Source: Escherichia coli
Lineage (GTDB): Bacteria > Pseudomonadota > Gammaproteobacteria > Enterobacterales > Enterobacteriaceae
Direction: 5' to 3' (one strand)
Assembly: GCF_003790525.1 (NCBI RefSeq)
Contig: NZ_CP033635.1
Length of the DNA stretch: 64,000 bases
Shown here: one piece after another, positions 24,559-59,702 of the stretch
Layout of the letters: the number at the start of each line of letters is the position of its first letter
Position numbering within the stretch: the first letter of the stretch is position 1
Notes under the pieces: model-generated
What the model was told of the DNA's origin: nothing
What the model saw: the letters and a program-made list of their open reading frames with translations, nothing else
Database searches by the model: none
Translations under genes and position numbers: made by a program

Positions 24559-25473
24559 TCACGTCAGCTGGTAATGGCGATCGGGAAGAATTTTCGCTGG
24601 AATTTCTGCTTCATCGTTCATCTGTAACAGGTCAATTTCAATAGCGTTGCAGATGGCATCCAGCGGTAAATCATTGTTTTCAGTACCGAAGGGATCTTCC
24701 AGTTCTTCCGCCAGACAATCCAGCGAAATAAAAGTGTAGGAAATCAGCACAGAGATAAAAGGCGTCATGTAATGCAGGTCCACGACCAGCGCAAACGGCA
24801 GCATGATACAAAACAGATACACGGTGCGATGCAAAATCAGGGTGTAGGCAAAGGGAATTGGCGTATAGGCAATGCGCTCGCATCCTGCCAGGACCGCTGA
24901 AATATCATTAAGCCGATCGTTGAGGCTAATAAACAGGATATCTGAAAGTTGTCCATTGCGTCGCTGAACCGCCAACCACTCCCCCATTATTAACAAGATG
25001 CGGTTAGCTGGAGAGTTCGAAGCCAGTACACGCTGAAGATCTTCAGTCTTGAGATAATGAGCCAGCACTTCCGCCTGTGGCTGTTTGCGTAATGTCATGC
25101 GTAAACAGTGGGCGAAGGCGATTTGCAGCCGGGCAAACTCCCTTACACTTGCCGAATCCGGTAATGTCGTTTTTACCTCGCGCAGTAACGACCGCGAGGC
25201 AATCATCAACTGCCCCCAAAGTTTTCGCGCTTCAACGTAACGCGCGTACCCGGCATTATTACGAAAACCAAGAAAAATGGCGATGGCGACACCGAGAATG
25301 CTGAACGGTGCGAGGGTGAATTTAATGCCCAAATGCGTGTACCTGGGCAGCATGAAAATAACAGCGATCGAAAAGAGAAAATTGAGTAGTAAGCGCGAGG
25401 ATATCTTGGATAATACTGAACCGTGCCAGACAAAAATACGGCGCAGCCAGTGTTGTTGTGGACGAACAATCAT
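24559..25473 (-). CDS. yneE: Bestrophin-family membrane protein
   Basis: ORF with multiple TM segments; start placed at internal ATG giving 304 aa (MIVRPQQHWLRR...). Confidence 0.75.
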   Translation of the reverse strand: MIVRPQQHWLRRIFVWHGSVLSKISSRLLLNFLFSIAVIFMLPRYTHLGIKFTLAPFSILGVAIAIFLGFRNNAGYARYVEARKLWGQLMIASRSLLREVKTTLPDSASVREFARLQIAFAHCLRMTLRKQPQAEVLAHYLKTEDLQRVLASNSPANRILLIMGEWLAVQRRNGQLSDILFISLNDRLNDISAVLAGCERIAYTPIPFAYTLILHRTVYLFCIMLPFALVVDLHYMTPFISVLISYTFISLDCLAEELEDPFGTENNDLPLDAICNAIEIDLLQMNDEAEIPAKILPDRHYQLT

Positions 25474-32702: not shown

Positions 32703-33819
32703 ATGGTTACGCCAGTAAGCATCAGCAATTACATATCTCTTCCTGATGATTTTCCCGTACGTAATATTGCACCGCAGGTAAAAGAAGTTTTAAAGGATTT
32801 CATTGATGCACTTAGTACAATAATATGTGATGAAGAATGGCGCACGTCTTTAAACATCAACTCAGCCACAAAAAAGATATTTAATAACCTTGACAACTTA
32901 TCATATATTCAGAGGACTTCTTTTCGGGGGTAACGACACGCTATACAATGAAAAGGTTCAGTTTAAACTCACTTATCCCGTCAAGAATGGAAGACACAAA
33001 GAAAATATTGAATTTCAGGTAGTAATAAATTTAAGCCCTATTTATTTAGATAATTTCCGCCATGATGGGGAAATTAATATTTTTTGCGCTCCCAACCCAA
33101 AGCCTGTCACTATGGGGCGCGTATTTCAGACCGGCGTCGAGCGTGTGCTCTTTCTTTTTCTGAATGACTTTATAGAACAATTTCCAATAATCAACCCTGG
33201 CGTTCCTATCAAAAGAGCGCATACGCCACATATTGAACCCCTGCATCCGGATCACCATACCGCTGCAGATTACATACGCCAGTTTGATTTGCTTGTCCTG
33301 AATTTTATCTCTCGCGGTAATTTTGTCATACTCCCCCGATTATGGAATAACTCTGAGGTTCACAGATGGTTCGGGAATAAAGAACCTAACTTGCTCACCG
33401 CTATTCTCGACATAACGGACAGCGAATTAAAAGAGGATTTATTGCAAAGTCTGATGGATTCACTAGGTTCTAACAAACATGTACTACCCGAAGTCTGCAT
33501 CTGCTTTTTATCCCTTTTAGCAGAACAAGATTTTCCACATTTTCAGGAGTTGTTTTTATTTTTCGCCAATATGTTATTGCACTATCACCAATTTATGAAT
33601 CCCAATGAAAGTGATTTGATTGACGTGTTGATGCCAGCATCATTAAGTGATGATAAAATTATCAAACATATGGCGCGCAAGACCCTCAAACTTTTTGTAA
33701 AAAATGAAACGCCGCCAAAAGTTACTCATGAAGACCTGGTGAAAAACAGGCCTCGCTCCCCTGTCAGACCACCTATACCCGCAACTGCCAAAACGCCAGA
33801 CCTCCCTGAACGTCATTAA
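32703..33819 (+). pseudogene. yneK: yneK interrupted by a +1 frameshift in a G5 run (32926-32930)
   Basis: Two overlapping track ORFs (32703-32933 and 32890-33819); removing one G joins them into a single 371-codon frame; AT-rich gene. Confidence 0.6.
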
Positions 33820-33968
33820 ACCGTGATGTGAACGACTCTCTGACGCGTGAAAGAATCAGCGTCAGAGAAACGGAAAACGCGATCCAGATCACAAATGCAT
33901 TGTATTCACATCATTAACCGTTTTAAGATCATTTCATCACTTTTTCGCAACTCACCCGATAATCTGTT

Positions 33969-35159
33969 ATGACAACAAACACTGTTTCCCGCAAAGTGGC
34001 GTGGCTACGGGTCGTTACGCTGGCAGTCGCCGCCTTCATCTTCAACACCACCGAATTTGTCCCAGTTGGCCTGCTCTCTGACATTGCGCAAAGTTTTCAC
34101 ATGCAAACCGCTCAGGTCGGCATTATGTTGACCATTTACGCATGGGTAGTAGCGCTAATGTCATTGCCTTTTATGTTAATGACCAGCCAGGTTGAACGGC
34201 GCAAATTACTGATCTGCCTGTTTGTGGTGTTTATTGCCAGCCACGTACTGTCGTTTTTATCGTGGAGTTTTACCGTTCTGGTGATCAGTCGCATTGGTGT
34301 GGCTTTTGCACATGCGATTTTCTGGTCGATTACGGCGTCTCTGGCGATCCGTATGGCTCCGGCCGGGAAGCGAGCACAGGCATTGAGTTTAATTGCCACC
34401 GGTACTGCACTGGCGATGGTCTTAGGTTTACCTCTCGGGCGCATTGTGGGGCAGTATTTCGGTTGGCGAATGACCTTCTTCGCGATTGGTATCGGGGCGC
34501 TTATCACCCTTTTGTGCCTGATTAAGTTACTTCCCTTACTGCCCAGTGAGCATTCCGGTTCGCTGAAAAGCCTCCCGCTATTATTCCGCCGCCCGGCATT
34601 GATGAGCATTTATTTGTTAACTGTGGTAGTTGTCACCGCCCATTACACGGCATACAGCTATATCGAGCCTTTTGTGCAAAACATTGCGGGATTCAGCGCC
34701 AACTTTGCCACGGCATTACTGTTATTACTCGGTGGTGCGGGCATTATTGGCAGCGTGATTTTCGGTAAACTGGGTAATCAGTATGCGTCTACGCTGGTAA
34801 GTACGGCGATTGCGCTGTTGCTGGTGTGCCTGGCACTGCTGCTACCTGCGGCGAACAGTGAAATACACCTCGGGGTGCTGAGTATTTTCTGGGGGATCGC
34901 GATGATGATCATCGGGCTTGGTATGCAGGTTAAAGTGCTGGCGCTGGCACCAGATGCTACCGACGTCGCGATGGCGCTATTCTCCGGGATATTTAATATT
35001 GGAATCGGCGCGGGTGCGTTGGTAGGTAATCAGGTCAGTCTGCACTGGTCAATGTCGATGATTGGTTATGTGGGCGCGGTGCCTGCTTTTGCCGCGTTAA
35101 TATGGTCAATCATCATTTTCCGCCGCTGGCCAGTGACACTCGAAGAACAGACGCAATAG
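33969..35159 (+). CDS. ydeA: MFS sugar (arabinose) efflux transporter
   Basis: 396-aa ORF with 12 predicted TM segments. Confidence 0.85.
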
Positions 35160-46154: not shown

Positions 46155-47039
46155 TCGGTGAATCACGTTTTGTTCGTCAATAAACATACAGCGATTTCTT
46201 CCGGTTTGCTTACCCTCATACATTGCCCGGTCCGCTCTTCCAATGACCACATCCAGAGGCTCTTCAGGAAATGCGCGACTCACACCTGCTGTCACGGTAA
46301 TGTTGATATGCCCTTCAGAATGTGTGATGGCATGGTTATCGACTAACTGGCAAATTCTGATACCTGCACGACATGCTTCTTCATCATTATCCGCTTTGAC
46401 AATAATGATAAATTCTTCGCCCCCGTAGCGATAAACCGTTTCGTAATCACGCGTCCAACTGGCTAAGTAAGTTGCCAGGGTGCGTAATACTACATCGCCG
46501 ATTAAATGCCCGTAGGTATCATTAACCAATTTAAATCGGTCAATATCCAACAACATTAAATAAAGATTCAGAGGCTCAGCGTTGCGTAACTGATGATCGA
46601 AGGATTCATCAAGAACCCGACGACCCGGCAATCCCGTCAAAACATCCATATTGCTACGGATCGTCAGTAAATAAATTTTGTAATCGGTTAATGCCGCAGT
46701 AAAAGAAAGCAACCCTTCCTGAAAAGCGTCGAAATGCGCGTCCTGCCAGTGATTTTCAACAATAGCCAACATTAATTCCCGACCACAGTTATGCATATGT
46801 TGATGGGCAGAATCCATTAGCCGAACGTAAGGTAATTCATCGTTATCGAGTGGCCCCAGATGATCAATCCACCGACCAAACTGGCACAGTCCATAAGAAT
46901 GGTTATCCGTTATTTCTGGCTTACTGGCATCTATCGCGACCACGCTGTGAAACATACTTACCAGCCACTGGTAGTGGGCATCGATAGCCTTATTGAGATT
47001 TAACAAGATGGCATCAATTTCCGTTGTCTTCTTGATCAT
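46149..47039 (-). CDS. dgcZ: Zinc-regulated diguanylate cyclase (CZB plus GGDEF)
   Basis: 296 aa from internal ATG (MIKKTTEIDAILLNL...); GGDEF motif RYGGEEF. Confidence 0.85.
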   Translation of the reverse strand: MIKKTTEIDAILLNLNKAIDAHYQWLVSMFHSVVAIDASKPEITDNHSYGLCQFGRWIDHLGPLDNDELPYVRLMDSAHQHMHNCGRELMLAIVENHWQDAHFDAFQEGLLSFTAALTDYKIYLLTIRSNMDVLTGLPGRRVLDESFDHQLRNAEPLNLYLMLLDIDRFKLVNDTYGHLIGDVVLRTLATYLASWTRDYETVYRYGGEEFIIIVKADNDEEACRAGIRICQLVDNHAITHSEGHINITVTAGVSRAFPEEPLDVVIGRADRAMYEGKQTGRNRCMFIDEQNVIHRV

Positions 47040-47901: not shown

Positions 47902-48003
47902 CGGAAGAGTATACAAAAAAGTAATTTTGCTGGCGACTGCGAAACGGCATTCGCATTAGCGGTGAAGTTTGCCCTCGCCCAGCTGCTGCAATTACTGCTA
48001 TAA
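47902..48003 (+). pseudogene. ydeJ: Possible 3' remnant of ydeJ (CinA C-terminal-domain family)
   Basis: Short open frame ...AGDCETAFALAVKFALAQLLQLLL* ending convergent to dcp, where K-12 has a full ydeJ; preceded by an in-frame stop and AT-rich sequence. Confidence 0.35.
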
Positions 48004-58991: not shown

Positions 58992-59702
58992 TTAATAATA
59001 ATCGATAGTATTTTTGATGGTGTAAACCCGTTCGACGGCGGGTTTTACTCCTTCATCAACAATGATTAGCTGACAGTCTACCGGATTGGCGTGACTGTCA
59101 TATTCACAGCTCTGTTTTACATTACCAACCCGTTGATTATTCAGTAAAGTAACCGCGGTGTAATCTAATTTTTTGATCGGATCCGTTGATGGCGTGGCGC
59201 TGACAGATAATGTTTTGTCGTTACTTTTCGTAGTTTTACCCAGCGGATACCCCTGATCATCATAGCGATATTCCATCTGCATCTGTTTGCTGCTGGCTTT
59301 AATCACAAAGCCATTATCATCGGTTTCCCAACTCACCCCGGCAGAAGGTAATTCTGCTAGCTGGCATTTTCCCTGCAAACGAACTCTTTTCTCCAGTGTC
59401 TGGGCATCACGGTAATAATTGGCGTCCAGTACCAGGGCAACCACGGTATTATTTTCCAGATCCAGTAATTCGAGAGAATCAAAACAGCCTTCTTCCGACA
59501 AAGTCCCCGAAACACGTTTCGTCACTTCACCTTGCTCATCCATTAATGTCTGAGTGAAATCTTTTACGGGACCACGCAGCGGATCAAAATCGAATTCATT
59601 AGAGAAACTGGCCATCTCCGGGGTAAATGAAAGTGTTACCTCTGTGCGGTCACATCCTGTGAGGAATATCGCGAGTAAGCATGGCAGTAATTTGTATTTC
59701 AC
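58992..59702 (-). CDS. ynfC: Lipoprotein YnfC
   Basis: 236 codons from GTG (VKYKLLPCLLAIFLTGC lipobox). Confidence 0.75.
   Translation of the reverse strand: MKYKLLPCLLAIFLTGCDRTEVTLSFTPEMASFSNEFDFDPLRGPVKDFTQTLMDEQGEVTKRVSGTLSEEGCFDSLELLDLENNTVVALVLDANYYRDAQTLEKRVRLQGKCQLAELPSAGVSWETDDNGFVIKASSKQMQMEYRYDDQGYPLGKTTKSNDKTLSVSATPSTDPIKKLDYTAVTLLNNQRVGNVKQSCEYDSHANPVDCQLIIVDEGVKPAVERVYTIKNTIDYY

Follow-up and report, generated by a model that had tools for sequence, protein, structure and literature searches.

A single extra G splits yneK in an Escherichia coli assembly: a probable homopolymer miscall or a very recent mutation

In the 64,000-nucleotide stretch of Escherichia coli DNA analyzed here (contig NZ_CP033635.1; hereafter, the window), the gene yneK appears as two overlapping open reading frames (ORFs) that part at a run of five Gs. 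Does this configuration reflect a genuine inactivation of the gene by strand slippage or a homopolymer sequencing error? Both causes had been put forward in a first-pass annotation made from the sequence alone, and both hold up in the analysis described below, in which the tract was compared with its counterparts across E. coli and with the other differences that separate the window from its closest relatives.

Direct reading of the sequence gives TCT TTT CGG GGG TAA at positions 32919–32933, and the gene name as well as the location of the GGGGG run at 32926–32930 were correctly assigned in the first-pass annotation: the run does split yneK. The upstream ORF (32703–32933) starts with ATG and encodes 76 residues; the downstream one, as delimited mechanically, encodes 309 amino acids from a TTG codon, upstream of which no Shine-Dalgarno sequence is visible, and an exact product look-up found no record anywhere of a protein with this start. 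The earliest canonical in-frame start past the premature stop is the ATG at 33112 (codon 137), for which, likewise, no obvious Shine-Dalgarno sequence was found by inspection. Removal of one G joins the two ORFs into a frame of 1116 nt and 371 codons, as the first-pass annotation had anticipated. The repaired gene is identical to yneK of strain SMS-3-5 (WP_000258568.1) at 1116 of the 1116 bases, the protein being identical as well, and it matches the NCBIfam model NF033404 “YneK” (371 positions) from position 1 to position 371 (E=2e-245, 813 bits). NF033404 is an equivalog model, membership in which is defined by a full-length match above a cut-off of 40 bits, and the repaired protein shows both. 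Because the two pieces match consecutive parts of this model (Table 1), they are one split gene and not a chance pair of ORFs. Adjacent ORFs that correspond to consecutive parts of one protein and are rejoined by the repair of a single indel make a frameshifted pseudogene in the annotation sense of the term; the gene is otherwise intact, with no secondary decay.

Table 1 Coordinates of the yneK pieces and of the frameshift site in the window
Feature	Position	Strand	Basis
yneK 5' fragment, 76 codons (M1–G76) followed by a premature TAA	32703..32933	+	NF033404 positions 1–76, E=1e-45
G5 homopolymer, frameshift site (G4 in relatives)	32926..32930	+	single-G gap in the alignment to SMS-3-5
TAA stop in the original frame, abutting the G run	32931..32933	+	frame reading
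yneK 3' part in the +1 frame: GGT = G76, AAC = N77, through H371 and stop	32929..33819	+	NF033404 positions 73–371, E=1e-194
Out-of-frame leader of the 309-aa mechanical ORF, TTG start at 32890, outside YneK	32890..32928	+	ORF list

The window belongs to the SMS-3-5 clade and is near-identical to SMS-3-5 itself (NC_010498.1) and to about 22 other complete genomes. All these ~23 nearest complete genomes carry four Gs at the tract, such that the best complete-genome matches comprise 1200 record bases against a 1201-base query and 24,999 bases against a 25,000-base query. The comparison with other E. coli yneK alleles proposed in the first-pass annotation was performed as a census of 5,426 complete E. 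coli genomes, using the run with 36 nt of flanking sequence on either side. The G4 version (76-mer) was found exactly in 2,080 of the 4,288 matching complete genomes and the G5 version (77-mer) in one of 4,231, with no exact occurrence of a G3 version (75-mer) among the 4,080 matching genomes; G5 is thus essentially absent from the species. Outside the complete genomes, a search for the exact G5 35-mer produced no metagenome contigs, against 32 contigs, all of them G4, for the G4 control, and the G5 35-mer was not found among the GTDB species representatives either. G5 is private to the window's sequence within its clade, and a pseudogene in the biological sense, with a lesion shared by descent, was not detected among the clade mates, the metagenome contigs, or the GTDB representatives. 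Two near-chromosome-length assemblies from another lineage (GCA_020556355.1 and GCA_020556385.1) also have G4 at the tract. These are textbook indel-ridden long-read assemblies, with 21–28 gap openings per 21 kb of alignment to the window, with sad, a GGDEF gene, uxaB, and lsr genes each broken into two or three ORFs, and with yneK in three.

The sole complete genome with G5 is that of NCTC11121 (NZ_LR134220.1), where yneK (EL088_RS11570) is already annotated as “frameshifted” by RefSeq. The likeness to the window is close at the tract, with an identical 77-bp context, five Gs and two ORFs, again in a singleton assembly. The two genomes differ, however, at 38 other positions in yneK, in the allele of ptrR, and in the surroundings of the locus, which in NCTC11121 are riddled with IS3. 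Because of these 38 other differences in yneK, the NCTC11121 tract is best regarded as an independent event or an independent error. No other assembly has G5 by descent, the only other case being a single assembly from an unrelated lineage. Within 50 kb, NCTC11121 has two features annotated as “frameshifted,” one of which is a commonly decayed autotransporter.

The first-pass annotation would have been contradicted by homologs that naturally end at the tract. The exact 76-aa product is indeed recorded on at least 24 short-read draft contigs, from lineages that share about 97% identity with the window, but in all nine of the nine places shown, the contig itself stops there, at ...CGGGG, ...CGGGGTA, or ...CGGGGTAA, with four Gs (window ~32929–32933). 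These short products are gene calls clipped by contig ends and carry G4 rather than G5, and were accordingly rejected as natural ends of homologs; no other homologs that end here were found. Breaks of draft assemblies exactly at the tract suggest a repeat or an insertion sequence inserted there. An IS1 in the GGTAATGAC orientation was considered as the cause of the breaks but was not confirmed, a query with the chimeric yneK/IS1 junction having produced no matches in complete genomes. In strain EC529, a 768-bp IS1A (2233–3000 of the stretch compared) does reside in yneK, just upstream of the tract and in the orientation opposite to the GGTAATGAC one, flanked by a 9-bp target duplication, GGACTTCTT, which corresponds to window positions 32914–32922 and ends 3 nt before the G run.

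Inactivation of yneK by other means is common. In the clade mate 2D, ISKpn26 (an IS5-like element; 6072–7052 of the stretch compared) interrupts the gene at about nucleotide 111, an independent inactivation, and in other lineages a deletion allele lacks 1,013 bp (window 32788–33800) and retains a remnant ORF of 39 amino acids. The tract segment is absent from about 1,140 of the 5,426 complete genomes (~21%), nearly all of which keep some sequence of the yneK region. The lineages with the deletion allele have hipBA and a filamentous-phage-like cluster beyond tam, in place of the lsr operon. These natural null alleles (deletion, ISKpn26, IS1) resemble the window in that yneK is inactive; they differ from it in being structural events, with the deletion common to many genomes, whereas G5 is a point indel encountered only in singletons. 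YneK itself is an uncharacterized protein without Pfam or KEGG annotation that is prevalent only in E. coli and Shigella, and its association with adherence in a pangenome analysis has been ascribed to possible linkage with marB (PMC11540155, PMC12757027). In our searches, YneK produced no match to a Pfam family and none in PADLOC, and only insignificant matches to PHROGs and to the sequences in the PDB.

What else sets the window apart from its clade bears directly on the choice between error and mutation. The alignment to SMS-3-5 covers window positions 809–3102 and 3098–64000 and contains five differences, namely, three substitutions (25344, 46933, and 59368) and two indels. Both indels are single-base changes in homopolymers: the additional G at 32926 (G4 to G5) and the shortening of a run of seven As to six at 47915–47920. 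Like G5, the six-A run is peculiar to the window: it was found in none of the 1,800 complete genomes with this segment, the best matches having 77 record bases (seven As) against a 76-base query and, over a longer segment, 25,001 bases against 25,000. This run is intergenic, adjoins a remnant of the 2-oxo-tetronate isomerase gene (ydeJ), and lies 15 kb from the G5 tract. Runs of four or more identical bases cover 6.5% of the window, and the probability that two randomly placed indels both fall in such runs is ~0.004, so both private indels are slippage-type or length-calling events. At the junction of the two aligned segments, ydeR of SMS-3-5 contains an IS3-family element of ~1.3 kb that is absent from the window (~3098–3102), the alignments overlapping by 5 bp. 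At the far end of the alignment, ynfF (window ~62802–64000) is annotated as “frameshifted” in SMS-3-5 and in KFu014, with no sequence difference in the window; this shift is clade-wide, unlike the private one in yneK.

Only part of the substitutions are private to the window. The one at 59368, in ynfC, is specific to the SMS-3-5 subclade, with KFu014 and eight other genomes of the clade matching the window. In codon 44 of yneE (minus strand; position 25344), AGG (Arg) in the window contrasts with TGG (Trp) in the ~23 nearest genomes; the exact YneE protein of the window, with the AGG codon, was found in several other lineages, and Trp-44 YneE also occurs outside the clade, NCTC11121 sharing the YneE protein accession of SMS-3-5. 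The Arg/Trp difference is, then, an old, species-wide natural polymorphism, and because R44 exists as an allele in nature, the window demonstrably comes from a real, distinct strain on its own branch. Position 25344 falls on the central W in a Dcm-type motif (CCWGG) that both alleles preserve. The substitution at 46933 (dgcZ, minus strand, codon 36) is private, AGA to ATA, which replaces Arg with Ile (R36I) and is a G-to-T transversion in the orientation of the gene; the exact DgcZ product with this replacement has no record in a collection of 15 billion proteins. In total, over ~63 kb, two homopolymer indels of a single base each and one or two substitutions make up the private branch of the window. 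Because the SMS-3-5 gene and the repaired yneK do not differ at any base, the frameshift itself is either extremely recent or non-biological.

The most likely cause, in our assessment, is a homopolymer-length miscall in the source assembly, an assignment we make with modest confidence, from a likelihood argument with very small counts. In that case, yneK in the strain would probably be intact, with the four Gs typical of the clade, and its division into two ORFs would be an artefact. G5 looks like an error in that it is a single-base length change in a homopolymer, is private to one assembly, and is accompanied by an excess of private homopolymer indels (two against one or two substitutions, small counts to be sure). 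We lean towards error because the private homopolymer indels are in excess relative to the substitutions: in the wild-type E. coli mutation-accumulation lines of Lee et al. 2012, small indels reportedly amount to about one-tenth of the substitutions. In mismatch-repair-defective lines, 5,324 indels were observed against 30,061 substitutions, a ratio of 0.18 (PMC8510543). We take this excess to be a signature of consensus error in flow-based or long-read data, as opposed to natural divergence. Most of the errors that persist in long-read assemblies are homopolymer indels, and these give rise to false “frameshifted” pseudogenes (PMC12007338). The window resembles such false pseudogenes in that a private single-base homopolymer indel splits a gene with no other defect, another indel of this kind being not far away; it differs from them in the shortness of the run (4 to 5 bases) and in a modest density of errors, at 2 per 63 kb. 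Several observations, indeed, argue against a miscall. The window is otherwise clean, so the assembly cannot be called grossly error-ridden; on most platforms, four bases make a short run for length miscalling, and in an Illumina-based assembly, an error of this kind would be very unlikely. In addition, yneK is demonstrably dispensable and often inactivated in nature, so a real null allele faces no barrier.

The principal alternative, which we consider a serious possibility although on balance we doubt it, is a real insertion of one G by replication strand slippage in the G4 run, which would have created a null allele very recently and in this strain alone. Indel rates are higher in longer runs, and indels have been documented at short G:C runs in E. 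coli (PMC8510543). The source strain is real and distinct, yneK has been lost repeatedly (by the deletion, by ISKpn26 in 2D, and by IS1 in EC529), and its product is uncharacterized and confined to E. coli and Shigella. Furthermore, the identical G5, annotated as “frameshifted,” is present in NCTC11121 in an allele with 38 other differences. Slippage has to contend, however, with the ratio of two private indels to one or two substitutions, which is several-fold to tens-fold above the natural ratios, and with the observation that G5 is never common to two genomes by descent. A mismatch-repair mutator would elevate the indels, but predicts transitions, which make up most of the substitutions in mismatch-repair-defective lines (PMC10710837), and the private substitution being a G-to-T transversion, this explanation is unlikely.

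If real, the insertion would stop translation at the TAA right after the run and leave a 76-aa N-terminal peptide, with residues 77–371 not made in quantity; because the ATG at 33112 has no evident Shine-Dalgarno sequence, the C-terminal 295 residues would be effectively lost. Since yneK is an orphan gene that E. coli can dispense with, its loss would be expected to have no phenotype. One could go further and suppose that yneK is inactivated recurrently in E. coli, possibly under selection, with a real G5 as one example, citing the additional G in two unrelated lineages, the IS1 near the tract, the breaks of at least 24 draft contigs, ISKpn26, and the approximately one-fifth of the genomes with the deletion; we consider this extension improbable.

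A functional role of the tract, be it +1 ribosomal frameshifting or phase variation at a poly-G run, we regard as very unlikely indeed. The idea of recoding comes from the reading past the run, where inspection of the +1 frame gives NDTLYNEKV..., the native continuation of YneK, and from the layout of UCU UUU CGG GGG UAA, in which the P-site codon can re-pair after a +1 shift and is followed by a rare codon and then a stop. Such a combination of a re-pairing codon with a rare codon or a stop is the general logic of the CUU-UGA site of prfB and of “shifty stop” sites. The slip might occur from UUU to UUC while the rare CGG codon occupies the A site, or else from GGG to GGU while the stop occupies it; the predicted product of the latter, S-F-R-G-N-D-T, would be exactly the wild type, and the former would give the near-native S-F-G-G-N-D-T. 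As in prfB, then, a shift beside an in-frame stop would restore the native protein. The site in yneK, by contrast, is unconserved, the wild-type gene being in frame (G4 in 2,080 genomes, G5 in one, and G3 in none), including all ~23 clade mates, and it has no separate Shine-Dalgarno stimulator upstream at a prfB-like spacing. A programmed frameshift is conserved among homologs, and the homologs of yneK are in frame; because the site is not conserved, a programmed event can be dismissed, and any read-through would be an accidental leak rather than an evolved mechanism. As a minor variant of the real insertion, the allele may be leaky through +1 slippage at UUU-CGG-GGG-UAA.

With the poly-G contingency loci of Neisseria, Haemophilus, and Campylobacter, the yneK tract shares only the property that slippage in the G run would toggle the frame. 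It spans 4–5 nt, compared with at least 7–8 nt at the known contingency loci, and shows no length polymorphism in more than 4,000 genomes, no heterogeneity among close relatives, and G4 in all 32 metagenome copies; besides, yneK has no known surface or restriction function. The long tract with several lengths in relatives that marks a phase-variable locus was not found here. The tract is stable, not phase-variable, and programmed frameshifting is set aside.

Whether a miscall or a recent mutation, the feature is ordinary, the same variant being already annotated as a frameshifted pseudogene in the public record. Its biological weight is small: at most, this would be another private null allele of an uncharacterized, frequently lost orphan gene. 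The practical implication is a quality flag. Taken together, G5 and the six-A run at 47915–47920 indicate that the source assembly may hold residual homopolymer indels, and read support should be sought before other “frameshifted” genes of this genome are taken for pseudogenes.

A few observations concern the immediate surroundings of yneK in the window, where the gene order is sad, ptrR (yneJ), yneK, ydeA, and the mar genes. A scan for promoters and terminators around yneK produced nothing above the shuffled expectation, and no intrinsic terminator was detected between yneK and ydeA (33969–35159), which begins 150 bp downstream. In the region between these two genes, 18 nt past the yneK stop, there is a perfect 10-bp inverted repeat (33837–33868; TCTCTGACGC...GCGTCAGAGA, with a 12-nt loop) that is not followed by a T-run and was not called a terminator by the scan. 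The gene yneK is AT-rich, its GC content being 39.7%, compared with 47.6% for the window and 52–54% for the neighboring genes.
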